Origin: Patescibacteria group bacterium
GTDB lineage: Bacteria; Patescibacteriota; Minisyncoccia; Minisyncoccales; UBA10102
Length of the DNA: 64,000 nucleotides
Direction: 5' to 3'
NCBI GenBank assembly: GCA_022563395.1
Contig: JADFNM010000001.1
Coordinates: 526,342-590,341, forward strand
Below are positions 2,329-54,273 of the stretch, piece after piece (position 1 is the stretch's first letter; every line of letters begins with the position of its first letter). The position numbers were made by a program, and so were the translations under genes. The notes under the pieces are model-generated. The model saw only the letters and a list, made by a program, of their open reading frames with translations, was not told the origin of the DNA and ran no database searches.

Positions 2329-2904
2329 ATGATTTCTTACCTTAAAGGAAAAGTCATAGCCCAAGGCCCAGATTATATCATAACAGAGACCGGGGGGGTA
2401 GGGTACAAGGTTTATATAGCAGAGAGCCGCCTTTCTTCTTACCCCGTGGGCAAGGAGACGGAGCTGTACTGTCATTTGCATATGAAACGAGAAGAAACCT
2501 TAGAGCTTTACGGCGTGGAGTCGCCTCAGGCGTTGGAAGTGTTTGAAACTCTAAACAATATTTCTGGTATTGGGCCAAAAGCTGCTTTGAACATTGCTTC
2601 CTTGGGTACCATGGAGCAGTTAAGGGGGGCAGTTGAAAAAGGGGATGCAAGCTATTTTGCCAAGGTTCATGGGATAGGGCAAAAAAGGATACAAAAGATT
2701 ATCCTGGAGCTTACCGGAAAGCTAAAAAGCCTGGACCAACAAAAGAATGGCAGACCAGAAGAAAAAGAGGCAGTAGATGCCTTGGTTGCTTTGGGATTTT
2801 CTCGGAAAAAGGCAAAGGAAGCGCTCTCTGAGATTTCTTCTGAAATCTCCCCTGTGGAAGAACGGGTGAAACAGGCCTTACGCCACATTCGCATATCTCC
2901 TTAA
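2329..2904 (+). CDS. ruvA: Holliday junction DNA helicase RuvA
   Basis: 191 aa with N-terminus MISYLKGKV and HhH motifs ISGIGPKAA and VHGIGQKRIQKI. The last codons and stop (ATA TCT CCT TAA) lie inside an R1 repeat flank. Confidence 0.9.
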   Translation: MISYLKGKVIAQGPDYIITETGGVGYKVYIAESRLSSYPVGKETELYCHLHMKREETLELYGVESPQALEVFETLNNISGIGPKAALNIASLGTMEQLRGAVEKGDASYFAKVHGIGQKRIQKIILELTGKLKSLDQQKNGRPEEKEAVDALVALGFSRKKAKEALSEISSEISPVEERVKQALRHIRISP

Positions 2905-2936
2905 TGAGATTAAGGATGCCTTAACGAGAGTAAGGA
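2893..2936. repeat. R1 repeat copy (two direct half-sites)
   Basis: ATATCTCC-TTAATGAGATTAAGGA-tgcc-TTAACGAGAGTAAGGA. It overlaps the ruvA stop codon. Confidence 0.7.
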
Positions 2937-2945
2937 TAGCTTTGC

Positions 2946-4229
2946 ATGCTGAATATTCTTAGAAAAGTTACCCCAAAGTTTCTCTTGAGCTGGTACCATT
3001 TTGTGTGGGCGTTAGCCGGGGCTTTGGTGTTCCGCTTTCCTGCCCGTGGCATGGTTGTTATTGGTGTGACAGGAACCAATGGGAAGTCTACCACTGTGGA
3101 CATGATTTCCCGTATTTTTAAGGAAGCTGGTTTAAACAGCGCCTCCATGTCTTCGGTTCGTTTTCAACTGAAAGATACAGAGTGGCGAAATACCATGAAA
3201 ATGACCATGCCAGGGCGTTTTGTCATCCAACAGTTCTTGCGCCAGGCAAAGACTAAGGGATGCACTCACGTGGTTTTAGAAGTGACGTCAGAAGGAATGC
3301 TCCAACATCGCCACCGCTTCATACCCTTTCACACCGCCGTCTTTACCAATCTTTCGCCAGAACACATTGAACGTCATGGTTCTTTTGAAAACTACAAGAA
3401 AACAAAAGGCAAGCTCTTTTCTCTTGCACAGGGAGTGCATGTTATCAATATAGATGATAAGCATACCCCATTCTTTCTTAAGTTCCCCGCACAAGAGATA
3501 TATACCTATGGCATATATCCTAAACGAGATTTAGGAATTCCTAAATCTCGTTTGAGCACCACACATATTCAAGGAGAAGATGTGAGAGAAAATGGGGGGC
3601 TGGATTTTAAAGCGCTGGGAACTAAATTTCATTTAGGACTTCTTGGTAGGTTTAATGTGTACAATGCTTTAGCTGCAATTGCAGTGGCACGATCTCAGGG
3701 AATCTCTCTTAAAGTTTGCAAAAATGCCCTAGAGAAAATGCAGGTGGTTCCAGGAAGAATGGAAGAAGTGATTTCTTCCCCCTTTCGGGTGGTGGTAGAT
3801 TACGCCTTTACCCCGGCTGCCTTAGAAAAAGTATACGAAACGCTTAAGCCCGCTTCTGGAAAGTTGCTCTGTGTTTTGGGAGCAGCCGGCGGAGGACGGG
3901 ATGCTTGGAAACGCCCTATCTTGGGTAAGATTGCATTGCAACATTGCAACACAGTCATCGTAACAGATGAGGATCCGTATGAAGAAAACCCAGAGAAAAT
4001 CATGGATGAGGTGATTGCGGGGGCCAAGGGAGAAGCAGAGAAGGTGCAAGATAGAAGGCAAGCTGTTGCAAAGGCATTGAGCATGGCACAAGCGGGAGAC
4101 ACCGTTGTTATTACCGGAAAAGGGTCTGAGGATTCCATGGCAGTTAAGGGAGGAAAGAAAATTCCTTGGGATGATAGAGAAGTGGTTAAAGAGGAGTGGA
4201 CGAAACTCAAAGAACGTGGTACGCTTTGA
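2946..4229 (+). CDS. Mur ligase family protein (MurE-like, short, TM-anchored)
   Basis: 427 aa. N-terminal hydrophobic helix, then P-loop GVTGTNGKSTT and a C-terminal Mur ligase domain (VITGKGSE). It lacks the N-terminal UDP-binding domain of canonical MurE. Confidence 0.75.
   Translation: MLNILRKVTPKFLLSWYHFVWALAGALVFRFPARGMVVIGVTGTNGKSTTVDMISRIFKEAGLNSASMSSVRFQLKDTEWRNTMKMTMPGRFVIQQFLRQAKTKGCTHVVLEVTSEGMLQHRHRFIPFHTAVFTNLSPEHIERHGSFENYKKTKGKLFSLAQGVHVINIDDKHTPFFLKFPAQEIYTYGIYPKRDLGIPKSRLSTTHIQGEDVRENGGLDFKALGTKFHLGLLGRFNVYNALAAIAVARSQGISLKVCKNALEKMQVVPGRMEEVISSPFRVVVDYAFTPAALEKVYETLKPASGKLLCVLGAAGGGRDAWKRPILGKIALQHCNTVIVTDEDPYEENPEKIMDEVIAGAKGEAEKVQDRRQAVAKALSMAQAGDTVVITGKGSEDSMAVKGGKKIPWDDREVVKEEWTKLKERGTL
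3519..3556. repeat. R1 repeat copy, in frame within the Mur ligase gene
   Basis: CCTAAACGAGATTTAGGAATTCCTAAATCTCGTTTGAG is translated as PKRDLGIPKSRLS. The left flank GCATATATCC resembles the common GCATATCTCC flank. Confidence 0.85.
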
Positions 4230-4273
4230 AGGTATTATTATGCGAGAAATGATAATATTTGCCGCATTTTTCT

Positions 4274-5436: not shown

Positions 5437-5445
5437 GCGAAGTAA

Positions 5446-5520: not shown

Positions 5521-5551
5521 TTGATGTTTCGTTTTTCCTTCTTTCCTGGTG

Positions 5552-5560
5552 TGGTATAAT
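5552..5560 (+). promoter_or_regulatory. Extended -10 box TGgTATAAT, 8 nt upstream of ATG 5569
   Basis: TGGTATAAT, then tggagtat, then ATG. No SD is present. Confidence 0.5.
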
Positions 5561-5568
5561 TGGAGTAT

Positions 5569-5986: not shown

Positions 5987-6024
5987 TAAATCTCATTTAG
6001 TTGTTAACAACTAAATGAGATTTA
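5987..6024. repeat. R1 repeat copy (perfect 38-bp palindrome)
   Basis: CTAAATCTCATTTAGTTGT|TAACAACTAAATGAGATTTA(A)G has 19-bp perfect arms around GTTAAC. It lies between the stop at 5985 and the GTG start at 6031. Confidence 0.9.
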
Positions 6025-7456: not shown

Positions 7457-7472
7457 CCAGAGAAACGCAGTT

Positions 7473-7513
7473 CTCCTAAATGAAATTAAAGAATCCTTAA
7501 TTTCATTTAGGAG
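7473..7513. repeat. R1 repeat copy
   Basis: CTCCTAAATGAAATTAAAGAATCCTTAATTTCATTTAGGAG has 17 perfect outer base pairs. It lies between the convergent acyP and pyrD genes. Confidence 0.9.
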
Positions 7514-7526
7514 GTATTGGCATAAA

Positions 7527-7568
7527 AAAAGAAGAGGGACGTGTTCTTATGGGAACATCCCTCTTTTC
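7527..7568. terminator. Bidirectional intrinsic terminator (acyP / pyrD)
   Basis: Stem GAAGAGGGACGTGTTC / GAACATCCCTCTT, preceded by an A-run and followed by TTTTCGTT. It is U-tailed on both strands. Confidence 0.7.
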
Positions 7569-7576
7569 GTTGCGCC

Positions 7577-11496: not shown

Positions 11497-11519
11497 GATT
11501 AAGAAACAATCCAATAGTT

Positions 11520-11563
11520 CTTAAATGAAATTAAGGAATCCTTAATTTCATTTAGGAGATATG
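11520..11563. repeat. R1 repeat copy with GGAGATATG flank
   Basis: CTTAAATGAAATTAAGGAATCCTTAATTTCATTTAGGAGATATG. A partial half-site GATGAGATTAAGA lies at 11492-11504. Confidence 0.9.
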
Positions 11564-16764: not shown

Positions 16765-17919
16765 ATGGCAAAGAAAAACAAGCTAAACTTTGGCTTTCCA
16801 TTTGGTGCGCTCCAAGATGAGATAATAGAGCTTTTTGAGGCCGCAGGGTACAAGGTAAAAGTTGATCAGACGCTCCAGAAGATTGAAATCAGCGACCCCG
16901 ACATCACATGCCTTTCTGCCCGTCCCATTGCCATATCCTCCATGGTTGAGAGGGGAATTTTGGATGTGGGCATTTCTACGGAAGCATCGGTCATAGAGGC
17001 AAAGACAAAAAGGGTGAAAGAAGTATGTGATCTTGAGTATGAAAAATCCCTTTGGGGAAAGACCAATGTGGTGTTGGCGGTCCCCAAGGATTCCAAGATT
17101 GCAAGCGTGAAAGGCCTTCGGGGCAAGAAAATCATCACCAGGATTCCCGAAATCACCAAAGAGTTTTTGCGAAAAAACAAGATTCAGGCTGAAATTCTGT
17201 ATTCTGACTCCCTGGTGAACGAATCTAAGGTTGGGGTGACTGCAGATGCCATTGTGGAGTTTTCCAGAAGGGGGGATGTGCTGGCAGCCTACAGCTTAAA
17301 AGTCCTCAAAACCCTGTTTGAGAGCTCGGTGATTTTGATTGCAAACCCAAAGGCGCTGCAGGATGCCACAAAGAAAAAGAAGATTCAAGAACTCGCAACC
17401 CGTCTCAGGAGAGCCCGTTCTCAGCAGGAGCAGATGGTGAGTCCCTACACTCCATCTGGGAGTACAACTCATCTTGATGATATTGACCTCAAGATTCTCC
17501 AGGAGCTTTTTGAAGATGGGAGAAAGTCCTTTGTGGAAATCGCCAAAGATACAAAACTGAGTTCGGTTGGTGTTAAAAAAAGAATAGAGAAACTGCTGCG
17601 AGAAGATATTGTACAGGTTCGGGGGTTCATGAACATTGAGAAGATGTATGCCATGAGTGCTGTAATCGGGGTGGAGGCAGACAGCAAGACTTTAGCAGAG
17701 CTTGTAGAGCGGTTCCAACGCTCTCACTTTGTATATATGCTTGTGAAAACTTCGGGGAGATACAACCTTGCTGTGGGAGTGCTTGCCTCAGACCTCGGGA
17801 GTCTTGAGAGTTTCATCACGAAAGAGATCCGGGAGAAGAAAGGAGTAAAACAAGTAGAGGTGAGTGTTGGAGAACTGCCCCTTATCCCCAAGTGGGTTTC
17901 CCCACCTTTTTATAAATAG
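16765..17919 (+). CDS. HisG-like domain fused to an Lrp/AsnC-type regulator (HTH plus RAM domain)
   Basis: 384 aa. Residues 1 to about 215 follow the ATP-phosphoribosyltransferase (short HisG) pattern (ARPIAISSMVERGILDVGIS..., ...VGVTADAIVEF..RGDVLAA). Residues from about 235 carry the AsnC HTH (DDIDLKILQELFEDGRKSFVEIAK) and a C-terminal RAM-like domain. Confidence 0.55.
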   Translation: MAKKNKLNFGFPFGALQDEIIELFEAAGYKVKVDQTLQKIEISDPDITCLSARPIAISSMVERGILDVGISTEASVIEAKTKRVKEVCDLEYEKSLWGKTNVVLAVPKDSKIASVKGLRGKKIITRIPEITKEFLRKNKIQAEILYSDSLVNESKVGVTADAIVEFSRRGDVLAAYSLKVLKTLFESSVILIANPKALQDATKKKKIQELATRLRRARSQQEQMVSPYTPSGSTTHLDDIDLKILQELFEDGRKSFVEIAKDTKLSSVGVKKRIEKLLREDIVQVRGFMNIEKMYAMSAVIGVEADSKTLAELVERFQRSHFVYMLVKTSGRYNLAVGVLASDLGSLESFITKEIREKKGVKQVEVSVGELPLIPKWVSPPFYK

Positions 17920-25476: not shown

Positions 25477-25598
25477 TATAATTTGTCGCGAGTGTCAAAC
25501 TTGTTTTGCACGAGCGACACCTTGGTGTTCTTTTACGGTTGGAACTCCCCTCCAAATTTGCAAAAGCAAATTTGGAGAATAAAAAGGGTCCAAATTAG

Positions 25599-25951
25599 TG
25601 GAGGTGGGGGCGGTGAAGCCCCGTCTAGAAGATATTCTACCAGTACTTCTACAGGCATAGTCCCATTGAAAGAGAAAGAAGGCGGGAATGGGACGAAGTT
25701 CTTCTTTCTTATGATTCTGTTTGTGTCGCAGCGTTCCCGAATCGCGAAACGATGCCTTTCTCGATGGTTGACACCTGTTTTGCCTATCGAGAGTCAGCAA
25801 ACAGATGGCTTACGGTATTATGCGTAGGCAAACGCCGGTTGTGCCGGCTTGAAAACGTTGGCATTTGTGGTGCCCCAGGTTTTTTTATGAGGAGCCTGGA
25901 ACCTCAGCCTGCATACTGGTGTCCTTTCCTCTATCGAAACAATTCACCCCC
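25599..25951 (-). ncRNA. ssrA: tmRNA (SsrA), one-piece
   Basis: 5' end GGGGGTGAATTGTTTCGATAG. The 3' T arm is GGGGC-TTCACC-GCCCC, followed by acceptor strand CACCTCC and discriminator A. The 7-bp acceptor has a G3:U70 pair. The tag ORF GCC AAC GTT TTC AAG CCG GCA CAA CCG GCG TTT GCC TAC GCA TAA encodes ANVFKPAQPAFAYA*. It lies directly downstream of smpB on the same strand. Confidence 0.85.
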
Positions 25952-26042: not shown

Positions 26043-26489
26043 CTATCTTCTTTTCAGTGCCCGTTCCATCTCTCTTTGGGCTTCTCTTTTTTTCAAGAGT
26101 TCTCGCTTGTCTCCTTTTCTCTTTCCTCTGGCAATACCAAAGGCAAGCTTAAGCTTTGCCTTGCTAGTATACACCCTTAAGGGCACAAAAGTCAATCCCT
26201 CCTGCTTTGATCTTCCGTACAAAGAGCGCAGCTCTTCTTTCTTCATTAAGAGCTTTCTTGCCCGGTCAGGATCGTAGTCAGACCCTGCGTTCTTTGGCTG
26301 GTACGGAGGTAGGGTAGAGCCCAAAAGATAGAGTTCTCCGCCCCGAAAGGAAACAAAAGAGCCCGCCAGCTGCAGCTTCCCTTGACGTATTGCCTTTACC
26401 TCTTGGCCTTTCAGCACCAACCCTGCCTCCAGGGTTTCAAGGATTTGGTAGTCGTGATGCGCCTTTCTGTTTTCAGCTAAAGTTGGCAT
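26043..26489 (-). CDS. smpB: SsrA-binding protein SmpB
   Basis: 148 aa: NRKAHHDYQILETLEAGLVLKGQEVK...KLLMKKEEL. Confidence 0.95.
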   Translation of the reverse strand: MPTLAENRKAHHDYQILETLEAGLVLKGQEVKAIRQGKLQLAGSFVSFRGGELYLLGSTLPPYQPKNAGSDYDPDRARKLLMKKEELRSLYGRSKQEGLTFVPLRVYTSKAKLKLAFGIARGKRKGDKRELLKKREAQREMERALKRR

Positions 26490-26530: not shown

Positions 26531-28288
26531 ATGATAGTTAAGCATCTAGAAAAACTTGTCCAGAGTGCGCTCAAATCCCTTAAAACCGAAGGTCTCCTTA
26601 ATGAGATTAAGGATTCCTTAATTTCGTTTGAGCATCCGGAGAACCCAGAACACGGGGATTATTCCACCAACGTTGCCCTGGTGCTAGGGAAGCAACTGAA
26701 CCAAAACCCAAGGAAAATTGCAGATTTAATACACTCAAGACTAAACATCAGAGACACAGGGTTTGTAAGCGAAATTAAGGCAGAAGGCCTCGGCTTCATC
26801 AACTTTTTCTTAAAGCAAGAGTACCTTATAGGAGAGTTGCAGGAAGTGATTAAGAAGAAAGAAAAGTATGGTCAAGGCGATGCTCAAAAGAAAAAGGTAA
26901 TGGTTGAGTTTACCGACCCCAACCCCTTCAAGGAGTTTCACATTGGGCATTTGTACAGCAATACCGTTGGGGAGAGTTTGTCTCGACTCCTTGAGGCGCA
27001 GGGAGCTCAGGTAAAGCGGGTGAACTATCAAGGAGATGTGGGGTTGCATGTTGCAAAGGCAGTCTGGGGCATGCAAAGGAATCTTGAAGAACAGCATCTC
27101 TCCCTAAAGGAGTTGGCGAAAAAAGATCTGTCAGTAAGGATGAAGTTTCTCGGGCAGTCATATGCAAAGGGGAACCAAGCGTATGAAACAGGAAACGCAA
27201 AAGAGGATATTGAAAGCTTGAATGCAAAAATCTTCGCCCTAGACAAAGAAATTAAGGAGCTTTATCAGCAAGGCAGAAAATGGAGTCTTGAATATTTTGA
27301 ACAAATCTACAAGCGCTTGGGAACCAAGTTTGACTATTACTACTTTGAAAGCGAAGTAGGAAAGGTAGGGGAAAAGCTTGTAGAAGAAGGAATGAAAAAA
27401 GGAATCTTTGAGAAAAGCCAGGGAGCAGTTATTTTTCCTGGAGAGAAATACGGCCTCCATAGCAGGGTATTCATTACTTCTCAGGGATTGCCAACCTATG
27501 AGGCAAAAGAGCTTGGGTTGGCTCCCACAAAATACAAAGACTTTAAGTATGATCTTTCCCTCATTATTACTGGGAATGAAATCATTGATTATTTTAAAGT
27601 ACTACTGGCCGCATTAAAGGAAATAAATCCAGAGCTTGGGAGAAAAACCAAGCATCTTTCCCACGGCATGGTACGTCTGCCAGAAGGCAAGATGTCGAGC
27701 CGTACCGGAAACGTTGTTACAGGGGAAGAGCTGATTGAAGAGGTAAAAGGCAGAGTACAAAAGATTATGAAGTCCTCGGGAAGCGAGATTCCCGAAAAGG
27801 AGCAGGAAGCTGCAACAGAAAGCATTGCAGTTGGGGCAGTAAAATATTCTTTGTTGAGGATCGGTCTTGGTAGAGATATCACTTTTGATTTTGATAAATC
27901 TCTGAGTTTAGAGGGGGAAAGTGGTCCATATCTTCAATACACGTATGCCAGATGCCGCAGCATCCTCCGCAAGGCAAACTTAAAGAGACTAAGTTATTCA
28001 CACCTTAAAGAAACTAAGTTGCTCCCAGAGGAGATGGCTTTGTTGAGGTTGCTGTATAGATTTCCAGAAATTGTTAGAGATGCAGCAGACAACTTTTCTC
28101 CTAATCTTGTTTGCAGCTTTGTGTTTGATATTGCCCAGGCCTACAACAACTTCTACAACACCCACCGGGTTTTGCAGGCAGAAATTGAGGAGCAAAAGAA
28201 CTTTCGCCTTGTGCTTACTGCAGCCACAGCCCAGATTATTCAGAATTCTCTCAAACTCTTGGGCATTAAAACCCCAGAGCGCATGTAA
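26531..28288 (+). CDS. argS: Arginine--tRNA ligase
   Basis: 585 aa. Motifs HGDYSTNVA, class I motif FHIGHLYS, and GKMSSRTGN, followed by a C-terminal DALR anticodon-binding domain. Confidence 0.95.
   Translation: MIVKHLEKLVQSALKSLKTEGLLNEIKDSLISFEHPENPEHGDYSTNVALVLGKQLNQNPRKIADLIHSRLNIRDTGFVSEIKAEGLGFINFFLKQEYLIGELQEVIKKKEKYGQGDAQKKKVMVEFTDPNPFKEFHIGHLYSNTVGESLSRLLEAQGAQVKRVNYQGDVGLHVAKAVWGMQRNLEEQHLSLKELAKKDLSVRMKFLGQSYAKGNQAYETGNAKEDIESLNAKIFALDKEIKELYQQGRKWSLEYFEQIYKRLGTKFDYYYFESEVGKVGEKLVEEGMKKGIFEKSQGAVIFPGEKYGLHSRVFITSQGLPTYEAKELGLAPTKYKDFKYDLSLIITGNEIIDYFKVLLAALKEINPELGRKTKHLSHGMVRLPEGKMSSRTGNVVTGEELIEEVKGRVQKIMKSSGSEIPEKEQEAATESIAVGAVKYSLLRIGLGRDITFDFDKSLSLEGESGPYLQYTYARCRSILRKANLKRLSYSHLKETKLLPEEMALLRLLYRFPEIVRDAADNFSPNLVCSFVFDIAQAYNNFYNTHRVLQAEIEEQKNFRLVLTAATAQIIQNSLKLLGIKTPERM
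26594..26632. repeat. R1 repeat copy, in frame within argS
   Basis: CTCCTTAATGAGATTAAGGATTCCTTAATTTCGTTTGAG is translated as LLNEIKDSLISFE (ArgS residues 22-34). Confidence 0.85.
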
Positions 28289-28346: not shown

Positions 28347-31226
28347 ATGGAAGTGAATTTTCCCAAGCTGGAAGAGCAAATCCTCAAGCGCTGGAGACGA
28401 GAAAAAACCTTTGTAAAATCCGTGGCAAGGAGAAAAAACTCTCCTCGCTTTGTGTTTTACGAAGGTCCTCCCACCGCCAACGGGAAACCAGGTTTGCACC
28501 ATGTGGAGTCCCGGTCTTTTAAAGACGTTGTGCTCCGCTACAAAACCATGCGGGGATTTTTTGTTCCGAGGCGTGCTGGGTGGGATACCCATGGTCTTCC
28601 TGTGGAGCTGGAGGTGGAAAAACAACTGGGGCTAAAGTCCAAAAAAGACATTGAAAAGTACGGCATAGCAAAGTTTAACGAGGAGTGCAGAAAGTCGGTG
28701 TGGAAATACAAGAAAGAGTGGGAAGAGCTCACAAACAGGGCGGGAGTATGGCTGGATACGGATAATGCGTATATTACCTATGAAACCCCGTACATTGAAA
28801 CCCTGTGGCAGATAATCAAAACCTGGTGGCAAAAAGGTCTCTTGTACAAAGACTACAAGGTAGTGCCTTTTTGCACGAGGTGCGGCACTCCCTTGTCTTC
28901 CCATGAGCTGGCCCAGGGGTACAAAACCGTAAAAGACCTTTCTGTCTATGTGAAGTTCAGGGCAAAAGGAAAGAAGCTTCCGCAAAAGACCTTCTTTCTT
29001 GCTTGGACCACCACGCCCTGGACCTTGCCTGGTAACGTTGCCTTGGCAGTAGGCAGGAATATTTCCTATGTCTTGGTAAAAAAAGACAATGAGCATTATC
29101 TCATGGCTAAAGGTTTGGCAGAGAAAGTGCTTCTAAAGTATGACGTTGTCAAAACGTTTTCTGGCAAAGACCTTGTGGGAATGAAATATGAGCCCCTGTT
29201 TTCTTTTAAAAAGCCAGAACAAGGAAAAAAGGCATGGGAAGTTGTTGCAGCAGACTTTGTTTCTACTAAGGAGGGAACCGGCATTGTGCATACCGCAGTT
29301 GCCTACGGAGTAGAGGACTTTGAGCTGGGGAAAAAAGAAAATCTTGCCATGCTCCACCTTGTGGACGAGCAAGGGAAGTTTGTAAAGGAAGCCACTCCTT
29401 TTAAAGGAAAGTTTGTAAAGGATGCTGACCCCTTGATTATAGCCGACCTGAAAAAGCGAAACCTCTTGTTCAAAGAGGAGTGGTATGAGCACGAGTATCC
29501 TTTTTGTTGGAGATGCTCCACACCATTGCTGTATTATGCAAAGGAAACATGGTTTATAAACATGCAGAAGGTGAAAAAACAACTCTTGGCAAACAACAGG
29601 AAGATAAACTGGATTCCAGGACACTTAAAGGAAGGCAGGATGGGAGAATGGCTAAAGGAGGTGAAGGACTGGGCGTTTTCCCGAGAACGGTACTGGGGAA
29701 CTCCATTGCCCATTTGGGAGTGCACCATGTGCGAAGAAAAAGAGGTTATCGGCTCTGTAAAAGAACTGCTTTCAAAGAAGCTTTTGCAAAACCCCTACAA
29801 AGGAAAGAAAGATATTGACTTGCACCGGCCGTATGTAGATGAAGTGGAGTTTCCTTGCACAAACTGCAAGGGAATCATGAAGAGGGTAAAGGATGTGGTG
29901 GATGTTTGGTATGATTCTGGTGCCATGCCCTTTGCCCAAAACCACTGGATGGGAGAAAAGAAACCAAAAGAGTTTCCTGCAGACTATATTGTAGAAGCCA
30001 TAGACCAGACCAGGGGTTGGTTCTATACCCTGCTTGCAGTATCCACGCTTCTTGGTTTTGGTCCCCCGTTCAAGAATGTTATCTCTTTGGGTCATCTGTT
30101 GGACGCAAAGGGAGAAAAGATGTCTAAGTCCAAGGGTAACGTGGTGAATCCTTGGGATGTGGCAGACAAATACGGCATGGATGCGGTGCGCTGGTACTTC
30201 TTTTCTGTAAATCATCCCTGGGACCCGAAGCTTTTTTCCGAGCGAGACCTTCAACAGACCTTAAGAAAGTTTATCTTAACCCTGTGGAATTCCCTGGCGT
30301 TCTATGAAACGTATAATCCTAAACGAGATTTAGGAGTTCCTAAATCTCGTTTAAGCGAGAATGTGCTGGATCAATGGATCGTGTCTCGCTTAAACACAAC
30401 CACAGCAGACATGACAAGGAAGATGGACGAATACGATATTACAGGAGCTGCCCGCGCCTTGGAATCTTTTGTTATTGAAAATCTTTCTCTGTGGTACATT
30501 CGAAGATCGAGAAGCAGGTTTCAGAACCCCAAAAGCAAGAAGGAATTGCAGGATGCGGTTTCAACCCTTGGATATGTACTTTTTCAGACAAGCTTGCTTT
30601 CTGCCCCGTTTATTCCTTTTTTGAGCGAGGTTGTGTTTGAGAAAAGCAATGGAAAAGGGAGCGTACACTTGCAGGATTGGCCCTTCGACCCAGCTCAGGA
30701 TAAACCAAAAGCCCCAAAACAAGATAAAAAATTAGAACAGGAGATGGAGAAAGTACGGCACATTGCAAGCAAAGGGCTGGCCTTGAGGGCAAAGGCGGGT
30801 CTTCGGGTGCGCCAACCCTTGGCAAAACTCACCATAAAAGAAAAACTTCAAAAAGAATTGCTGCTTTTGCTTCAAGATGAGTTAAACGTAAAAGAAGTGG
30901 TGGTGAGCTCAAAGCTTAAAGGGGATGTGCAGTTGGACACCAAACTTACGCCTCAATTAAGAGAAGAGGGGCTGGTGCGGGAGTTGTTGCGCCATATTCA
31001 GGGCATGAGAAAAGATGCAGGGTATAAGCCGCGCCATCGCGTTCGGTTGCGCTATGCCGGGACAGCCGACGTCAAAAATCTGTTTTCTCGCCACAAAGAA
31101 ACCCTTGTAAAGATTGGAGGCATCACAGAACTTTTGGAAGGAGACCGCCCCAAACAGGTGTTTGATATTGAGAAAACAATAAAGATTGGAGGAAAGAAGC
31201 TGTGGCTCGGCATCCGCAAGATTTGA
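28347..31226 (+). CDS. ileS: Isoleucine--tRNA ligase
   Basis: 959 aa from ATG 28347. The 1051-aa track ORF is an upstream extension that overlaps argS. Motifs PPTANGKPGLHH, an editing domain, and KMSKSKGN. Confidence 0.95.
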   Translation: MEVNFPKLEEQILKRWRREKTFVKSVARRKNSPRFVFYEGPPTANGKPGLHHVESRSFKDVVLRYKTMRGFFVPRRAGWDTHGLPVELEVEKQLGLKSKKDIEKYGIAKFNEECRKSVWKYKKEWEELTNRAGVWLDTDNAYITYETPYIETLWQIIKTWWQKGLLYKDYKVVPFCTRCGTPLSSHELAQGYKTVKDLSVYVKFRAKGKKLPQKTFFLAWTTTPWTLPGNVALAVGRNISYVLVKKDNEHYLMAKGLAEKVLLKYDVVKTFSGKDLVGMKYEPLFSFKKPEQGKKAWEVVAADFVSTKEGTGIVHTAVAYGVEDFELGKKENLAMLHLVDEQGKFVKEATPFKGKFVKDADPLIIADLKKRNLLFKEEWYEHEYPFCWRCSTPLLYYAKETWFINMQKVKKQLLANNRKINWIPGHLKEGRMGEWLKEVKDWAFSRERYWGTPLPIWECTMCEEKEVIGSVKELLSKKLLQNPYKGKKDIDLHRPYVDEVEFPCTNCKGIMKRVKDVVDVWYDSGAMPFAQNHWMGEKKPKEFPADYIVEAIDQTRGWFYTLLAVSTLLGFGPPFKNVISLGHLLDAKGEKMSKSKGNVVNPWDVADKYGMDAVRWYFFSVNHPWDPKLFSERDLQQTLRKFILTLWNSLAFYETYNPKRDLGVPKSRLSENVLDQWIVSRLNTTTADMTRKMDEYDITGAARALESFVIENLSLWYIRRSRSRFQNPKSKKELQDAVSTLGYVLFQTSLLSAPFIPFLSEVVFEKSNGKGSVHLQDWPFDPAQDKPKAPKQDKKLEQEMEKVRHIASKGLALRAKAGLRVRQPLAKLTIKEKLQKELLLLLQDELNVKEVVVSSKLKGDVQLDTKLTPQLREEGLVRELLRHIQGMRKDAGYKPRHRVRLRYAGTADVKNLFSRHKETLVKIGGITELLEGDRPKQVFDIEKTIKIGGKKLWLGIRKI
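30318..30355. repeat. R1 repeat copy, in frame within ileS
   Basis: CCTAAACGAGATTTAGGAGTTCCTAAATCTCGTTTAAG is translated as PKRDLGVPKSRLS. Confidence 0.85.
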
Positions 31227-37946: not shown

Positions 37947-37949
37947 TTG

Positions 37950-38019
37950 TTGATATTGCCTAAACGTGTTGATATTGCCTAAACGAGATTTAAGCATGAG
38001 TGCTTAAATCTCGTTTAGG
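37950..38019. repeat. R1 repeat copy with a tandemly duplicated left edge
   Basis: TTGATATTGCCTAAACG occurs twice, 19 bp apart (37950-37966 and 37969-37985). It is followed by the palindrome CCTAAACGAGATTTAAGCA-tgag-TGCTTAAATCTCGTTTAGG (37978-38019). Confidence 0.85.
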
Positions 38020-38036
38020 AGAACTTCGGTAGAACT

Positions 38037-40510: not shown

Positions 40511-40554
40511 GCATATCTCCTAAATGAAATTAAAGAATCCTTAATTTCATTAAG
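40511..40554. repeat. R1 repeat copy with GCATATCTCC flank
   Basis: GCATATCTCCTAAATGAAATTAAAGAATCCTTAATTTCATTAAG. It is preceded by the small GC hairpin GCCCGC-TTCA-GCGGGC (40487-40502). Confidence 0.9.
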
Positions 40555-40566
40555 TTTTTATAGGGC

Positions 40567-41096: not shown

Positions 41097-42035
41097 ATGC
41101 TAATAGATACCCACGGACACGTCAACTTTGCCGCTTTCAAGAATGACGCAAAAGAGGTTCTGCACCGTACCTTGAAAGGAGATACCTGGGTTATAATGCC
41201 AGGCACCCAGTATGCTACCTCAAAGAAAGCAGTAGAAATGGCAGAGCAGTATAGAGAAGGAGTGTATGCCGCAATTGGTCTGCACCCTATTCATCTTTCA
41301 GAAAAGCGCAAGGTTGATGTATTGGAAGTGCAGTCAGAAAACACCAAGGAGGAAGAATGGATGACCTTTGAAACACAAGAGGAGGAGTTTTTGTATGAAA
41401 AGTACAAAGAATTGGGACAAAGCAAAAAGGTGGCGGCAGTCGGTGAGTGCGGCCTGGATTATTACTATGAACCAAAGAGCAAAGAAAGAAGAGAAGCTCA
41501 ACGGCGTAAACAAAAGGCAGCGCTTGCCTTGCAACTGAAGTTGGCAGACGAGCTAAACTTGCCGATTATTTTCCATTGCCGCAAGGCACATGATGATTTG
41601 ATTGAATTTCTAACAAACTACAAACTACAAACTAAAAATTTGAGAGGTGTCGTGCACTGCTACACTGGAGACTTAAAACAGGCAGAGCAGTTCTACAATA
41701 TTGGCCTCTCTTTTGGGTTTAACGGCCTTATTTTCAAAGATGTTCCTGCGCTTCCCAATCCAAAGGAGATTATTGGAGCTTTACCCTTGGAGCGAATTGT
41801 TCTGGAAACTGATTCTCCCTACTTACTGCCGCCCTTGCCCGCCGACCCGGCCTCCGTAGCCACTTCGGCGAAGGGGGCAGCTTTAGCGAAGGCGGGACAG
41901 GCAGGACGCAACGAACCCCTGTTTGTAAAATATGTAGCAGAGGAGATAGCTCGTATTAAAGGTATCTTAGTAGACGAAGTTTCCTCTGCGACAACCAAAA
42001 ACGCCAAAGCCTTATTTCGCTTAAATGAGATTTAG
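41097..42035 (+). CDS. tatD: TatD family metal-dependent deoxyribonuclease/hydrolase
   Basis: 312 aa from ATG 41097 (the track ORF from 40863 is an upstream extension). Motifs IDTHGH, GECGLDYY, HCR, VHCYTG and ETDSPYL. It contains an F2 insertion, and its stop codon lies in an R1 copy. Confidence 0.9.
   Translation: MLIDTHGHVNFAAFKNDAKEVLHRTLKGDTWVIMPGTQYATSKKAVEMAEQYREGVYAAIGLHPIHLSEKRKVDVLEVQSENTKEEEWMTFETQEEEFLYEKYKELGQSKKVAAVGECGLDYYYEPKSKERREAQRRKQKAALALQLKLADELNLPIIFHCRKAHDDLIEFLTNYKLQTKNLRGVVHCYTGDLKQAEQFYNIGLSFGFNGLIFKDVPALPNPKEIIGALPLERIVLETDSPYLLPPLPADPASVATSAKGAALAKAGQAGRNEPLFVKYVAEEIARIKGILVDEVSSATTKNAKALFRLNEI
41832..41906. repeat. F2 GC-rich repeat copy, in frame within tatD (75 nt)
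   Basis: Encodes PLPADPASVATSAKGAALAKAGQAG between the conserved SPYLLP and RNEP. It contains GCGAAGGCGGG (41886-41896) and AGCTTTAGCGAAGG (41879-41892). Confidence 0.7.
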
Positions 42036-42061
42036 GTGTGGATAACTAAATCTCGTTTAAG
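42020..42061. repeat. R1 repeat copy (tatD / mutY-like convergent junction)
   Basis: CTTAAATGAGATTTAGG-tgtggataa-CTAAATCTCGTTTAAG. The tatD stop TAG (42033-42035) lies inside the left arm. Confidence 0.85.
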
Positions 42062-42066
42062 CGAGA

Positions 42067-42876
42067 TTAGAGGGAATAGAAGTTTCTTTTCTTTTTTATG
42101 AGGCCATCTTTTTCTAAAGAGGCAAGAATCTTTTCTGGCACATAGGGGCTCTTCGCTTTTTTGAGCAGTCGCTGGATTTTGCTTGCAGTGGCAGTTTGAT
42201 TTGGCTGGTCTAAGAGAAAGCGCATTACTTTGGTGCGAAACGAGCGGAGAGAACCTTCAAATCTGCTTTGCTTTGCATAGTGCTTGCTTTGCTTGTTTAT
42301 CTTTTTGTCTTTGAGAACCGTTGCCCCGTAGTCAAAGAGGGCATAGTGCCATTGTCGAGGATTCTTTTTCCACACTGCCTTTTCTGCAATATGCAGAATC
42401 TCTTTGTCTGACACGTCTTTCTTTTTTGGAAAGAAAAAGTGCAGGTATACTCTTCTGATGTTTGTATCTAAGAATGCGTCTTTGTTTTGAAAAGCAAAGC
42501 AGGCGATAGCCCCAGCAGTGTAAGGACCAATGCCAGGGAGTTTTTGTAAGTCCTTAGGGTTTTCAGGAAACTTTTCTTCATGACTCTTTATTATCTCCTT
42601 TGCAGCTTTCTTTAAAGAAAGGGCACGTTTCCAGTATCCAAGGCCTCGCCAAACTTTAAGGAGTTTTCCATCTGGAGTTTTTGCAAGAGATTGCAAGGTT
42701 GGGAACTCTTTGAGAAACTCTTTGTATTTGGGAAGGACTCTTGCAACCTGGGTCTGTTGAAGCATGACCTCAGACACCAATATCTTGTAGGGGTTGTCGG
42801 TTTCTCTCCAGGGCATATCCCTTTGGTTCTTTTTGCGGGAATCTAAGATGAGTTTTTGGAACTTGGGAATGGTCAT
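42067..42876 (-). CDS. HhH-GPD DNA glycosylase, MutY/Nth-like, without a recognisable Fe-S cysteine cluster
   Basis: 269 aa. Motifs PWRET.NPYKILVSEVMLQQTQV, HhH-GPD LPGIGPYTAGAI, and catalytic-region DTNIRRV. No C-x6-C-x2-C-x5-C motif is seen. Confidence 0.65.
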   Translation of the reverse strand: MTIPKFQKLILDSRKKNQRDMPWRETDNPYKILVSEVMLQQTQVARVLPKYKEFLKEFPTLQSLAKTPDGKLLKVWRGLGYWKRALSLKKAAKEIIKSHEEKFPENPKDLQKLPGIGPYTAGAIACFAFQNKDAFLDTNIRRVYLHFFFPKKKDVSDKEILHIAEKAVWKKNPRQWHYALFDYGATVLKDKKINKQSKHYAKQSRFEGSLRSFRTKVMRFLLDQPNQTATASKIQRLLKKAKSPYVPEKILASLEKDGLIKKKRNFYSL

Positions 42877-42932
42877 GAACCCATTTTAGCACAATGGACA
42901 AATAAGGGGGGATTGGCTACAATCTGTGTATT

Positions 42933-45344
42933 ATGACGCGCTACGAGCATGAGAAAATAGAGGCAAAGTGGCAGAAACGCTGGGAGAAAAAGAAGGCCTG
43001 GGAGGTGGATTTGGACAAGGCAAAAAAGCCCTACTATAACTTAATGATGTTCCCCTATCCTTCAGCAGAGGGGCTGCATGTAGGGAATGTCTATGCCTTT
43101 ACCATCTCTGACATTCATGGAAGGTTCCGCAGAATGCAGGGATATGATGTGTTTGAGCCCATGGGGTTTGATGCCTTTGGCATTCATTCAGAAAACTTTG
43201 CCATTAAACAGGGGACGCACCCAAAAGAGCAGACTGCAAAGAACATTACGCACTTCACAAAACAGCTCAAGCAATTGGGAGCTCTTTTTGATTGGCAAAG
43301 AGCAGTTATTACCAGTGACCCCGAATACTACAAATGGACCCAGTGGCTGTTTGTGCAACTCTACAAAGCAGGTCTGGCATATAAGGGGAAAGCCCCTGTT
43401 GACTGGTGTCCTTCTTGCAAGACCGTGCTGGCAGATGAGCAGGTTATAGAAGGGCAATGCGAACGATGTGACACTCAGGTTGTGCAAAAGGAATTGGAGC
43501 AGTGGTTTTTTCGCATTACCAAGTATGCGGACCGCCTATTAAAAAACTTGGAGTGGATTGACTGGACCGAAAAGACCAAACTCGCGCAAAGAAACTGGAT
43601 TGGAAAGGCAGAAGGCACAACCATAAAATTCAAAGTTCCCAATTCCAAGCATGAGGTTGAAGTCTTTACGACGCGTGCCGATACGCTTTACGGCGCAACG
43701 TTTATTGTTTTAGCACCAGAACACCCCATGGTAGCTTCCCTCCAAAACTCAAAAGAGGTTCAAAAGTATGTAGAGAAATCAAAGCAGAGAACCGAACTGG
43801 AAAGAAAAGCCGAGGAAAAAGAAAAAACAGGCGTTTTCTCGGGCCTGTACGCGATAAACCCGCTCAACAAGGAAAAAATTCCTGTTTGGATTGCTGATTA
43901 TGTGTTAATGGGTTATGGAACAGGTGCCTTGTTTGGAGATGCTCACGACGAGCGTGATGTCGAATTTGCTAGAAAGTATAACATTCCACTCAAACCCACC
44001 GTAATCACAGGAGATAAAGAGAAAGACCGGAAGATCTTAAGCCTTGAAGAATGTTTTACAGGTTATGGCACCTTAGTGGACTCTGGTCCATTTACAGGCT
44101 TGACCTCAAAGGAAGCAATAGCAAAAGTGATGGAGTGGCTTATCAGGAAAGGACAGGGCGGGCGGAAAGTAACGTACCACCTCAGAGATTGGCTTATCTC
44201 TCGTCAGCGCTACTGGGGGTCTCCCATCCCTATTATCTATTGCGCAAAATGCGGCACGGTTCCGGTTCCAGAAAAAGACCTTCCGGTAAAGTTACCCGAG
44301 GTAAAGGATTTTCGACCTTCTGGCACGGGTAAGTCGCCCTTGGCTTCCGTTGCGAGCTTTGTGAAAACCAAGTGCCCTCAATGTAAAGGGCCAGCTGAGA
44401 GGGAAACAGATGTTTCAGACACGTTTTTAGATTCAGCCTGGTATTTTTTCCGCTATCCCTCAACCGAGTTTAAAACAAAACCTTTTGATAAGGTAAGGGT
44501 AAAGAAGTGGCTTCCTGTGAATATGTACATTGGAGGGCACGAGCACGCTGTCTTGCACCTCTTGTACACCAGATTCATTACTATGGCCCTAAAAGACATG
44601 GGACACATTTCTTTTGAGGAACCCTTTGAGAAATTCCGCGCCCACGGTTTAATCACCAAAGGCGGGGTAAAGATGTCCAAATCCAGAGGGAACGTGGTGA
44701 ACCCAGACGAGTACTTTGTAAAGTACGGCGCAGACACGGTGCGTACCTATTTAATGTTTCTGGGTCCTCTGGCAGATGGGGGAGGTTGGTCAGACAGGGG
44801 AATCGTTGGCATCTCCCGGTTTTTCAACCGTCTCTGGGTATTTGTGCCTAAATCTCGTTTAGGAGATCCTAAACGAGATTTAGGAAATGAGGCCTTGCGG
44901 CATAGAACAATCAAGAAAGTTACTGAAGACCTAGAGAATCTGCGATATAACACCGCAATTGCAGCTTGCATGGAATATTTTAATGCCCTTCAAAAATCCA
45001 GCAATCCAACAAAAGAAGAGACAGATACTTTACTCATTCTTCTTTCGCCTTTTGCCCCTCATTTAACGCAAGAACTCTGGGAAAAACTTGGCAACAAGGG
45101 AAGTGTGCATGACCAACCTTGGCCAAAGCATGACCCAAAGGCATTGCAGGAAAAAGTTGTTCGGCTTGTGGTACAGGTGAATGGAAGAGTCAGAGAAGTT
45201 CTTTTAGTTTCTCCCGGCATTTCAGAAAAGGAGGCTGTTGCTCGGGCGCTGCAGCAAGAAAAGGTAAAGAAATGGTTCCCCACGGGAAAGCCAAAGAACG
45301 TGGTGTTTGTGAAAGGAAGATTACTAAATCTTGTATCGTATTAA
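42933..45344 (+). CDS. leuS: Leucine--tRNA ligase
   Basis: 803 aa. Motifs MFPYPSAEGLHVGN, a CP1 editing domain, and VKMSKSRGN. Confidence 0.95.
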   Translation: MTRYEHEKIEAKWQKRWEKKKAWEVDLDKAKKPYYNLMMFPYPSAEGLHVGNVYAFTISDIHGRFRRMQGYDVFEPMGFDAFGIHSENFAIKQGTHPKEQTAKNITHFTKQLKQLGALFDWQRAVITSDPEYYKWTQWLFVQLYKAGLAYKGKAPVDWCPSCKTVLADEQVIEGQCERCDTQVVQKELEQWFFRITKYADRLLKNLEWIDWTEKTKLAQRNWIGKAEGTTIKFKVPNSKHEVEVFTTRADTLYGATFIVLAPEHPMVASLQNSKEVQKYVEKSKQRTELERKAEEKEKTGVFSGLYAINPLNKEKIPVWIADYVLMGYGTGALFGDAHDERDVEFARKYNIPLKPTVITGDKEKDRKILSLEECFTGYGTLVDSGPFTGLTSKEAIAKVMEWLIRKGQGGRKVTYHLRDWLISRQRYWGSPIPIIYCAKCGTVPVPEKDLPVKLPEVKDFRPSGTGKSPLASVASFVKTKCPQCKGPAERETDVSDTFLDSAWYFFRYPSTEFKTKPFDKVRVKKWLPVNMYIGGHEHAVLHLLYTRFITMALKDMGHISFEEPFEKFRAHGLITKGGVKMSKSRGNVVNPDEYFVKYGADTVRTYLMFLGPLADGGGWSDRGIVGISRFFNRLWVFVPKSRLGDPKRDLGNEALRHRTIKKVTEDLENLRYNTAIAACMEYFNALQKSSNPTKEETDTLLILLSPFAPHLTQELWEKLGNKGSVHDQPWPKHDPKALQEKVVRLVVQVNGRVREVLLVSPGISEKEAVARALQQEKVKKWFPTGKPKNVVFVKGRLLNLVSY
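44847..44885. repeat. R1 repeat copy, in frame within leuS (perfect 17-bp arms)
   Basis: CCTAAATCTCGTTTAGG-agat-CCTAAACGAGATTTAGG is translated as PKSRLGDPKRDLG. Confidence 0.9.
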
Positions 45345-45345
45345 A

Positions 45346-45380
45346 CTTAATGAAATTAAGGAATCCTTAATTTCATTAAG
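45346..45380. repeat. R1 repeat copy (perfect 35-bp palindrome), flank supplies the glmS SD
   Basis: CTTAATGAAATTAAGGAATCCTTAATTTCATTAAG is followed by GAGATATTCAT-ATG. The sequence AAGGAG ends 8 nt before ATG 45392. Confidence 0.9.
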
Positions 45381-45391
45381 GAGATATTCAT

Positions 45392-50994: not shown

Positions 50995-51043
50995 ATCGCA
51001 TATCTCCTAAACAAAATTAAGGAAAACCTTAATTTTGTTCAGG
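50995..51043. repeat. R1 repeat copy (variant) with GCATATCTCC flank
   Basis: ATCGCATATCTCCTAAACAAAATTAAGGAAAACCTTAATTTTGTTCAGG. Confidence 0.85.
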
Positions 51044-51052
51044 AACTACTGT

Positions 51053-54262: not shown

Positions 54263-54273
54263 GATACTGCATT

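Follow-up and report, generated by a model that had tools for sequence, protein, structure and literature searches.

A palindromic repeat read in frame within arginyl-tRNA synthetase of a Patescibacteria bacterium probably overlies a loop of normal length

The argS gene of a Patescibacteria group bacterium contains, near its 5′ end, a 39-nt segment that resembles a palindromic repeat, R1, present between genes of the same genome, which raises the question of whether a repeat has added residues to an essential enzyme or overlies a part of the protein that was already there. We examined this locus in a 64,000-nt stretch of the genome (the window), whose numbering is used throughout. That the host gene encodes an arginine--tRNA ligase was supported by all three domains of an arginyl-tRNA synthetase, namely the N domain (Arg_tRNA_synt_N, residues 5–94, 3.8e-19), the class-I catalytic domain (tRNA-synt_1d, 103–453, 5.1e-36) and the DALR anticodon-binding domain (DALR_1, 468–585, 2.2e-31). 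The protein also matched ArgRS entries in the PDB down to 4.7e-62, and its orthologues in Wildermuthbacteria/Parcubacteria are 60–85% identical. The segment, CTCCTTAATGAGATTAAGGATTCCTTAATTTCGTTTGAG, was found on the + strand at 26594–26632 as a single exact match; the offset from the gene start (26594−26531 = 63) places it at ArgS codons 22–34, in agreement with the first-pass annotation. Allowing up to 3 mismatches, there was no second match to this 39-mer in the window and none in 100 shuffles of the window.

When nhmmer was run with a profile of six copies, all of them intergenic, it recovered the ArgS copy at 26587–26628 with E=1.2e-10 (37 bits), and to judge from this match the segment clearly belongs to the R1 nested-palindrome repeat family of this genome. 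R1 is a lineage-specific family whose members, 39–41 nt in size, consist of two ~17-nt mini-palindromes that jointly make a ~40-nt hairpin; the two arms of the ArgS copy also pair in this way. The 15-nt left unit of the ArgS copy, CTTAATGAGATTAAG, is identical at 2900 and 54243, the exact match to the copy at 2895 extends to 22 nt, and small palindromic units of this kind occur 12 times in the window versus 0.75 expected. The units differ from one another, with no exact 9–12-nt core common to all, and the left flank reads CGCATAT-CTCC... in intergenic copies and CGAAGGT-CTCC in argS. R1 density is ~1 per 5 kb (~2 per 10 kb). Copies lie in frame within the unrelated genes argS, ileS, leuS and a Mur-ligase gene, those in ileS and the Mur-ligase gene being 95% identical; intergenic copies occupy short spacers between cistrons, where their 3′ arms often bear the Shine-Dalgarno sequence of the downstream gene, and in the copy between ruvA and the Mur-ligase gene the stop codon of the upstream gene falls in the left unit. 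In 681 kb of relatives searched with an A-type profile, the sole matches were the argS copy and ileS. The second pair of small units in argS lies in linker codons about 483–497, preceding the DALR domain, a low-confidence block in the AF2 model; according to the codon alignment, most aligned relatives carry paired palindromes there, differing in sequence between them, and L001/L003, L006, L010 and L064 do not (Table 1).

Table 1. Positions of argS, its palindromic segments and other R1 copies in the window
Feature	Position	Strand	Remarks
argS, arginine--tRNA ligase	26531..28288	+	585 aa; host gene; basis: Pfam N-domain, catalytic and DALR domains
R1 copy, A-type variant, argS codons 22–34, LLNEIKDSLISFE	26594..26632	+	Profile match; most nucleotide-conserved 13-codon window
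Small palindromic unit CTTAATGAGATTAAG, left half of ArgS copy	26597..26611	+	7-bp-type stem, 3-nt loop
13-bp RNA stem (predicted)	26600..26628	+	26600–26612 pairs with 26616–26628, loop 26613–26615; two pairs G·U
Second pair of small palindromic units in argS, AACTTAAAGAGACTAAGTT ... CTTAAAGAAACTAAGTT	27977..28021	+	Codon alignment
Intergenic R1 copy between ruvA and Mur-ligase gene	2897..2936	+	Left unit identical to that of ArgS copy
B-type R1 copy in frame inside Mur-ligase gene, PKRDLGIPKSRLS	3517..3557	+	
Intergenic perfect 19-bp palindrome of R1 family	5987..6024	+	Arm-swapped form
Intergenic A-type R1 copy	7473..7513	+	20-nt arms; reads LLNEIKESLISF in spurious ORF
Intergenic R1 copy	11514..11562	+	Right arm ends AGGAG 12 nt before ATG at 11571
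B-type R1 copy in frame inside ileS, PKRDLGVPKSRLS	30316..30356	+	Loop of ancestral length
Intergenic R1 copy in ~90-nt spacer	37978..38019	+	Spacer missing at orthologous junction of L062
Intergenic R1 copy downstream of metS	40519..40555	+	
R1-family palindrome between convergent tatD and HhH-GPD genes	42011..42070	+	
B-type R1 copy in frame inside leuS, PKSRLGDPKRDLG	44847..44885	+	Perfect 18-bp palindrome
Intergenic R1 copy, leuS–glmS	45345..45382	+	Right arm gives AAGGAG 8 nt before ATG at 45392
Intergenic R1 copy upstream of Sua5/YrdC gene	51005..51044	+	Orthologous copy in L187 (12746–12796)

Over wider genome contigs, the degenerate pattern CCTWAAYGARATTWAGGA gave single chance matches in unrelated phyla; its several matches in the rumen MAG RUG13580 were simple terminator-like hairpins followed by A-runs. 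We also considered, and set aside, the idea that coding R1 copies mark former gene or domain boundaries, the Mur-ligase copy being inside a domain.

The ArgS variant had been described as read in another phase than the B-type copies, and translation in all frames agrees: it is open solely in the frame used (frame 2 gives ...IP-stop and frame 3 P-stop-stop), and the B-type copies are open solely in the CCT AAA CGA frame, the ArgS frame there giving ILNEI-stop. The accompanying statement that each variant occurs in its one open phase is true, but for a copy within an intact essential gene it is a logical necessity. Since each variant has only a single open frame out of three, the phase rule is survivorship, not evidence of adaptation. 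An intergenic copy at 7473, reported as near-identical, does exist and reads LLNEIKESLISF, but with an identity of 32/39 it is similar rather than near-identical. Its spurious ORF (64 aa, 7386–7580) runs in another frame and overlaps the 3′ end of ORF 7166–7456, which by eye we take to be acylphosphatase-like. The reverse complement of this copy reads LLNEIKDSLISFR.

The first-pass annotation implied that the 13 residues are an addition to the enzyme, and proposed checking whether they form an extra surface helix or hairpin. Sequence alignment does not bear out an addition, as the segment has the same length in sisters whose fetched loci lack the repeat and in distant Parcubacteria. In a 120-homologue alignment it is ungapped relative to ArgS of P0003 and P0008 and to 13 distant long-form ArgS of Parcubacteria, which have an equally long connector, 'EGxLPxFxIPxFSVE'. 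The P0003 and P0008 segments (the former one codon longer) read G[LV]L..AKE..[LV].FEH; no R1 copy was found in the fetched loci of P0003 (13.7 kb) and P0008 (9.8 kb), nor are these segments repeated elsewhere in their own loci. The segment corresponding to query residues 13–35 is 23 aa long in 19/111 homologues, with a mode of 16 aa and a maximum of 24 aa, and the nearest short-form ArgS (P0009, P0010 and P0019) are exactly 11 aa shorter at this point. The ISFE of the ArgS copy aligns with the conserved β1 strand of the N domain (xIxLEHPEN), and PDB ArgRS homologues start aligning at residue 31, ISFEHPEN. Conservation of these residues in organisms free of R1 had been named as the observation that would speak against an added element; the length and the ISFE strand are indeed kept there, but the peptide varies. 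The AlphaFold prediction is likewise of an ordinary helix-to-strand connector: the model (pLDDT 91.5) has helix 2–19, coil 20–27, turn 28–30 and a strand bridge at 33–34, with a pLDDT of 72 for block 21–30. The R1 copies of ileS and leuS also lie in loops of ancestral length. A bootstrapped NJ tree of ArgS resolved shallow clades alone. The R1-like state is distributed patchily and TCGCCAAGGA is common to P0003 and P0008, which makes the ancestral state of the segment ambiguous; the ArgS copy may have been inserted into a loop that had become shorter, or may have arisen through conversion at constant length.

At the nucleotide level, the 39 nt form the most conserved 13-codon window of argS, with a mean pairwise identity of 93% versus a median of 77% among five orthologues. 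Among codons for invariant amino acids, 1/10 showed a synonymous change inside the segment (7.5 expected), compared with 76% outside; the binomial P of this deficit at codons 22–34 was 2.2e-5, the lowest of 344 windows, the tests being not fully independent in that the copy-bearing orthologues are only five and phylogenetically related. The loop peptide varies freely in R1-free relatives. Conservation of the ileS copy is not exceptional (top 13–21% of windows). With synonymous sites frozen and the same peptide also read from a non-coding copy, it is the nucleotide sequence rather than the protein that appears to determine the peptide at codons 22–34, in support of the earlier proposal that the repeat gives rise to the peptide as a by-product. 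We infer that the constraint on argS is functional, acting on a hairpin or a binding site, rather than the result of repeated conversion from other copies.

The GAG variant of the window's ArgS copy is common to two other units of the same genome, and conversion from other family copies could likewise freeze synonymous sites. A correlation between presence of the R1 family and conservation of the ArgS copy was dropped as a firm claim: the P0001 and P0002 loci are uninformative in coverage, spanning only a stretch that is without intergenic copies even in the window, and L187, from the same sample as P0002, carries orthologous intergenic R1 copies, its origin from one genome with P0002 being presumed.

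Folded as RNA, region 26585–26641 reached −19.2 kcal/mol (z=−3.3), versus a small left hairpin only (−7.5 kcal/mol, z=−1.9) when folded as DNA. The orthologous argS segments of L059, L060, L065 and L066 also fold (z −3.5 to −5.7), giving an RNA hairpin in five orthologues; no fold was obtained at this segment in L061, L062, L063, L064, L001 and L002, the hairpin being essentially lost in L062. Pairing in the ArgS copy is the weakest in the family, with 13–14 Watson-Crick and 2–3 G·U of 18 pairs, whereas the arms at the orthologous leuS and ileS sites are near-perfect (16–18/18 Watson-Crick, at most one G·U). Comparison of orthologues revealed no two-sided compensatory change within the ArgS copy: its changes are one-sided, two improving pairs and four or five breaking them (L065 and L066). 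By contrast, the leuS coding copy has 7/18 pairs changed across three genomes, all on both sides and all still Watson-Crick, and L002 has 8 pairs changed on both sides in its ileS copy; the leuS–glmS spacer copy differs from its L187 orthologue by 1 compensatory pair. An Rfam scan of the window assigned no family to any hairpin, detecting a tmRNA and two tRNAs only, and no trans-acting factor or processing signal was found for R1.

We favor the reading, to which we assign a probability of roughly 0.55, that the 39 nt of argS constitute a vertically inherited, in-frame R1 element with dual use, coding and hairpin, that overlays a loop of normal length. The copy would overlay the α1–β1 connector of the Arg_tRNA_synt_N domain and add no module. 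Its 3′ end would be pinned by the conserved F-E-H of β1, which would explain why its palindrome is less perfect than any other in the family. Codons 22–34 would be translated as a tolerated loop while the nucleotide sequence itself stays constant, and the peptide LLNEIKDS would therefore be dictated by the nucleic-acid element. Its molecular form would most likely be a stem-loop of the sense-strand mRNA (13 bp with G·U pairs, −15 to −19 kcal/mol), which would play the same role as the intercistronic copies of the family.

Could mutation alone, without any function, have produced the same picture? Intrastrand template switching, or conversion between arms or copies, would make and perfect palindromes, which tolerant loops would gather at unchanged length; synonymous sites would look frozen, any change in one arm being either lost again or transferred to the opposite arm and there altering an amino acid. 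That template switching gives rise to hairpins and maintains them has been documented (PMC8794818); it makes or re-perfects inverted repeats in one step, with length unchanged, and mimics compensatory substitution (PMC8794818, PMC5453318). Correction of quasipalindromes has been described in E. coli (PMC7202029). The near-perfect Watson-Crick arms and multiple two-sided changes at the orthologous leuS (7/7 changed pairs) and ileS sites, and the same-length replacement in three aaRS loops, are all consistent with such a process. Coding palindromes of nematomorph mitochondria, whose arms both encode conserved protein sequence (PMC6649704), offer a precedent and resemble R1 as perfect or near-perfect inverted repeats that lie in functional coding sequence and have each arm translated; unlike R1, they are mitochondrial, reach 284 bp and are not of a dispersed family common to intergenic sites. 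Template switching is a mutational mechanism rather than a class of elements, however, and leaves unexplained why distant, unrelated loci have a common sequence (95% for ileS and the Mur-ligase gene, E=1e-10 for ArgS). Moreover, arm homogenization predicts the opposite of the ArgS copy, which is imperfect and yet the most conserved. We consider a purely mutational origin unlikely.

Among the known systems closest to R1 in argS are the Rickettsia palindromic elements (RPE), in-frame palindromic repeats of protein-coding genes (PMC10969869), and our best reading is that R1 in argS resembles these elements but is not an insertion. Like RPE, R1 is a genome-specific palindromic family found between genes and in frame in several unrelated housekeeping genes, and it is translated as part of its host proteins, at positions that their folds can accommodate. 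Whereas RPE are insertions of ~100–150 bp that add a conserved peptide module, R1 measures ~40 nt and, in argS, ileS and leuS, adds no residues relative to R1-free orthologues, ArgS being longer only than the P0009/P0010/P0019 sister group; its synonymous sites in argS are frozen rather than decaying, and the two have no sequence relationship. A neutral, selfish insertion of the RPE type, in which a mobile ~40-nt palindrome landed in frame by luck, added about 11–13 residues to a permissive loop and was tolerated, would account for the presence of R1 in unrelated genes and spacers, for the 11-aa deficit of the short-form ArgS and for the lower model confidence of the loop. It would also fit the presence/absence polymorphism at the spacer copy at 37978, a ~90-nt spacer in the window versus overlapping genes in L062. 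Yet relative to P0003/P0008 and to distant long-form ArgS there is no net gain in length, loops of ancestral length also hold the ileS and leuS copies, and a neutral insert should decay, whereas this segment is the most conserved of its gene at synonymous sites. The ArgS copy is flanked by neither a target-site duplication nor a terminal tag, and the 35 window proteins scanned with Pfam included no transposase, nor a RAYT (Y1 transposase) of the kind associated with REP/REPIN; the window covers 64 kb, the genome at least 671 kb. Such an insertion seems to us rather improbable, somewhat more so than mutation alone. MITEs, too, are marked by terminal inverted repeats lying within a target-site duplication; the ArgS copy has no duplication at its flanks, and at 37948–37985 a 19-nt tandem duplication overlaps the left arm of the copy at 37978. 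R1 also recalls REP/REPIN sequences (PMC3733652), which are multi-copy, imperfect palindromes of 20–40 nt with species-specific sequences, mostly in short spacers between same-strand genes. It is without their GTAG or CGTC tag, having a CGCATAT-like left flank instead, and differs in its architecture of two nested mini-palindromes; it also has clear coding copies in frame, whereas REPs have none by definition.

It is very improbable that R1 spreads in the manner of DNA uptake sequences (DUS/USS), as a preferentially imported mini-palindrome propagated by point mutation and homologous recombination. Uptake sequences are over-represented, enter coding regions in permitted frames and without length change, favor less constrained parts of proteins and form lineage-specific dialects (PMC2817400, PMC3630211), and R1 is similar in each respect: its coding copies sit in variable protein regions in the only open frame, and L002 and L189 have their own CCTAGG forms. 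Inverted pairs located between genes are a further likeness. However, R1 copies are too variable to have the exact 9–12-nt core that uptake sequences carry at high density on both strands, their density is ~1 per 5 kb rather than ~1 per kb, an insertion-type polymorphism of ~90 nt exists, and palindromy at two nested levels is foreign to uptake sequences. Finally, the idea that LLNEIKDSLISFE is no more than ancestral ArgS sequence with a fortuitous likeness to the repeat, for which its canonical length and the EG..L....[IV]..F/L-E-x-P pattern also seen in R1-free ArgS could be cited, is effectively refuted by the match to the intergenic-only profile and the frozen synonymous sites, and is further opposed by the uniqueness of the 39-mer in the window and its shuffles and by the free variation of the peptide in R1-free relatives.

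On the dual-use reading, one 39-base stretch of an essential gene would serve both a nucleic-acid element and a protein, with the nucleic acid winning: a loop that is hypervariable across the ArgS family is frozen down to its synonymous sites in the five copy-bearing orthologues. Because the ileS and leuS copies stay near-perfect through many two-sided changes, our results suggest that in-frame palindromes of bacteria need not be insertions and can overwrite loops at constant length, which bears on how repeats shape proteins, on gene annotation and dN/dS analyses in CPR genomes, and possibly on the discovery of regulatory or processing signals of a new, embedded kind among organisms for which very few regulators are known. 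A broader and doubtful extension is that R1 forms a conserved class of cis-acting elements, held at orthologous positions across lineages by selection, with compensatory evolution, and recognized by one trans-acting factor or RNase, located in variable loops of core translation genes of Wildermuthbacteria and between cistrons (counting argS twice, ileS, leuS and the Mur-ligase gene). If true, it would represent a coordinated, coding-embedded layer of control over aminoacyl-tRNA synthetase expression in a minimal-genome CPR bacterium.

R1 is a nested palindrome with about 14 copies in the window, each made up of two mini-palindromes of ~17 nt (e.g., CCTTAAT-GAG-ATTAAGG or CCTAAA-CGAGA-TTTAGG) whose centers lie 20–21 nt apart and which together form a ~40-nt hairpin. 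We counted 12 mini-units where 0.75 were expected. Most copies occupy short spacers between same-strand genes, and four are clearly in frame within coding sequence, in argS, ileS, leuS and a Mur-ligase gene. The left unit of the ArgS copy recurs exactly (CTTAATGAGATTAAG, 54243-57) as a mini-unit that holds the predicted ATG start of the gene at 54247-55110. Using a profile built solely from six intergenic copies, we recovered the ArgS copy at E=1.2e-10, above every other coding copy. The 39-mer coincides exactly with argS codons 22–34 (peptide LLNEIKDSLISFE), and its coordinates and the three-domain ORF (Arg_tRNA_synt_N, residues 5–94; catalytic, 103–453; DALR, 468–585) bear out the location proposed in the first-pass annotation. 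Judged from the ArgS and LeuS relatives, the host belongs to Candidatus Wildermuthbacteria (Parcubacteria/CPR). The homologue P0014, a 398-aa product from an ENA record of a 106-kb contig, matches the window ArgS over its first two thirds at 100% identity, an indication that the gene was called too short, or is frameshifted, in a different assembly of this organism. Divergent from argS, a tmRNA gene (25596-25951, −; Rfam, 107 bits) directly adjoins smpB (26043-26489, −), and the smpB and argS start codons are only 41 nt apart. Elsewhere, ORF 16765-17919 joins a HisG (ATP phosphoribosyltransferase) domain to an AsnC/Lrp-type HTH and ligand-binding domain, an unusual fusion.

Palindromic features in the window and in aligned loci of relatives (L numbers)
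Feature	Position	Strand	Details
R1 A-type 39-mer	26594-26632	+	CTCCTTAATGAGATTAAGGATTCCTTAATTTCGTTTGAG; sequence search of window
argS ORF	26531-28288	+	585-aa arginyl-tRNA synthetase; all three expected domains present
argS-linker mini-palindrome pair	27977-28021		second pair; codons ~483–497, before DALR
argS-linker counterparts	L059 2517-2552; L060 5172-5207; L061 11446-11485; L062 11466-11507; L063 6878-6917; L002 11424-11463
ileS coding palindrome	window 30316-30356; L002 15199-15238; L062 13818-13855		copy PKRDLGVPKSRLS
leuS coding palindrome	window 44847-44885; L187 4880-4917; L189 2213-2252
Intergenic R1 copy	7473-7513		32/39 identical to ArgS copy; within 64-aa ORF
Intergenic R1 copies, right arm ending AGGAG/AAGGAG	45345-45382; 11539-11562; 2919-2936; 38001-38022

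To compare orthologous loci, we fetched them and aligned them codon by codon. The same 39-mer, with 0–4 differences, was present in the window, L059, L060, L065 and L066, and L062 carried a diverged copy. Compared across the five close copies, no other 13-codon window in the 585 codons of the gene was as conserved at the nucleotide level (93% mean pairwise identity vs a median of 77%), the HIGH-motif region included. Where the amino acid was invariant (353 codon columns), synonymous variation was seen in 74% of columns, but inside the segment in only 1 of 10 such columns against 7.5 expected (binomial P=2.2e-5; lowest of 344 windows). On this alignment evidence, it appears to be the DNA rather than the protein that is conserved, in support of the earlier view that the peptide is a by-product of the repeat. 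The profile match and the frozen synonymous sites together rule out a chance resemblance to R1. Translation of all frames further confirmed that each variant sits in its only open phase, the ArgS and B-type variants each having one open frame per strand; this rule is correct yet forced for copies inside essential genes, because any copy surviving there must use that frame. The 7473 copy, described earlier as near-identical, is indeed similar and its peptide (LLNEIKESLISF; reverse complement, LLNEIKDSLISFR) is read in an ORF overlapping the end of ORF 7166-7456, but its identity is only that given in the table.

The first-pass annotation had raised the possibility of an extra 13-residue surface element, which our results did not support. 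When 120 homologues were aligned, the segment had the same length in the sister proteins P0003 (GVLNFAKEPPLVVFEH) and P0008 (GLLSLAKETLVLFEH), which both have TCGCCAAGGA and in whose fetched loci no R1 copy was found, and an equally long 'EGxLPxFxIPxFSVE' connector was present in 13 distant Parcubacteria. This canonical length speaks against a 13-residue insertion. The stretch matching residues 13–35 was 23 aa long in 19/111 homologues (mode 16 aa, maximum 24 aa), and the short-form sister group (P0009, P0010, P0019) was the only one 11 aa shorter. The AlphaFold model (pLDDT 91.5) predicts a helix at 2–19, coil at 20–27, a one-turn helix at 28–30 and a strand bridge at 33–34, an ordinary helix-to-strand connector; residues 21–30 (pLDDT 72) are among its lowest-confidence blocks, and ISFE followed by HPEN forms the conserved first beta-strand, where solved ArgRS structures start aligning. 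The repeat thus lies on top of a connector that is itself ordinary and permissive. Neighbor-joining bootstraps supported (P0004,P0006)+P0008 (1.0) and (query,P0001,P0002)+P0003 (0.82) but no deeper nodes, so that R1-like sequences are patchy on the ArgS tree; the copy may have arisen either through insertion, into a loop that had become shorter, or through conversion at constant length.

The other synthetase genes showed similar occupation of loops. The ileS copy aligned gap-free with relatives lacking it, in a loop of ancestral length; at this site L002 holds a perfect 18-bp palindrome of another sequence (CCTAGGCTCGGCCTAGG...), in which 8 pairs have changed on both sides in a compensatory way, and L062 holds a third palindrome. 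In L059, the ileS palindrome is decaying (−13 vs −20.6 kcal/mol), and ileS (2845-5746) is called as two overlapping genes with many stops in single-frame translation, a frameshift or an assembly error. The leuS copy is perfect or near-perfect in the window, L187 and L189 (17–18 Watson-Crick pairs of 18) with differing sequences: the 7/18 pairs that changed did so on both sides, and each remains a Watson-Crick pair. In other relatives the loop there is unstructured and roughly equal in length, and PK..LG.PK..LG-type peptides occupy the site in many other Wildermuthbacteria LeuS proteins. Most aligned relatives also carry a palindrome pair in the argS linker, a region of low confidence in the AF2 model, each different in sequence (e.g., AACTTACTCTCGGTAAGTTTAAACTTAGTGAGAGTAAGTT in L063); it was absent in L001/L003, L006, L010 and L064. 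Among spacers, the leuS-glmS copy is orthologous in L187, with one compensatory pair differing. L187 has a perfect 20-bp palindrome upstream of leuS (2887-2927; GTCCTTAGCGAGACTAAGGA/TCCTTAGTCTCGCTAAGGAC), whereas none was detected in the 57-nt spacer of the window (42877-42932), a further case of presence in one genome and absence in the other. The ~90-nt spacer at 37947-38036, which holds an R1 copy and a 19-nt sequence duplicated in tandem (TGTTGATATTGCCTAAACG; 37948-37966, 37967-37985), is missing at the same junction in L062 (~21160), where the stop and start codons of the two genes overlap (TAATG); insertion/deletion turnover therefore also occurs.

As RNA, the ArgS region folds into a 13-bp stem (−19.2 kcal/mol, z=−3.3), and as DNA into a small left hairpin only. 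The L059, L060, L065 and L066 segments fold alike (z −3.5 to −5.7); no comparable fold was found in those of L061, L062, L063, L064, L001 and L002. Changes among ArgS orthologues were one-sided and so give no proof of covariation for this copy: pairing is strengthened by two of them (G.U to A-U, U.G to C-G) and disrupted by several. No member of the family is a less perfect palindrome than this copy (13–14 Watson-Crick pairs of 18), plausibly because F-E-H fixes its right end. Since G.U pairs work only in sense RNA, the active form is most likely a predicted mRNA stem-loop. In several intergenic copies, the right arm ends in AGGAG/AAGGAG 8–15 nt before the next start codon and the left arm starts with CTCCT, like an anti-Shine-Dalgarno sequence, so that the hairpin would sequester the downstream ribosome-binding site. 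In two, the left arm contains or adjoins the upstream stop codon.

The best-supported reading is that the ArgS segment would be a dual-use coding and nucleic-acid element, a vertically inherited family palindrome overlaying a permissive ArgRS loop, with its nucleotide sequence under constraint. The main rival is mutational drive, through template switching or through conversion from arm to arm and from copy to copy (PMC8794818, PMC7202029). Such a drive would account for the constant length and, at leuS and ileS, for the near-perfect arms, but is a poorer explanation of why the ArgS copy, imperfect as it is, should be the most frozen and of why distant loci share sequence. Uptake-sequence-like drive (PMC2817400) partly fits, in that length is constant, but not with the sequence variability and density of R1, and neutral insertion in the manner of Rickettsia palindromic elements (RPEs; PMC10969869) is at odds with both the canonical length and the freezing of synonymous sites.

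In-frame palindromic repeats are already known as RPEs and as nematomorph mitochondrial coding palindromes (PMC6649704), as are REP families (PMC3733652); our literature search found no account of elements of this sort in CPR bacteria. R1 differs from these systems in its small size, its nested architecture, its presence in loops of several aminoacyl-tRNA synthetase genes without a change in loop length, and the evidence of nucleotide-level constraint.
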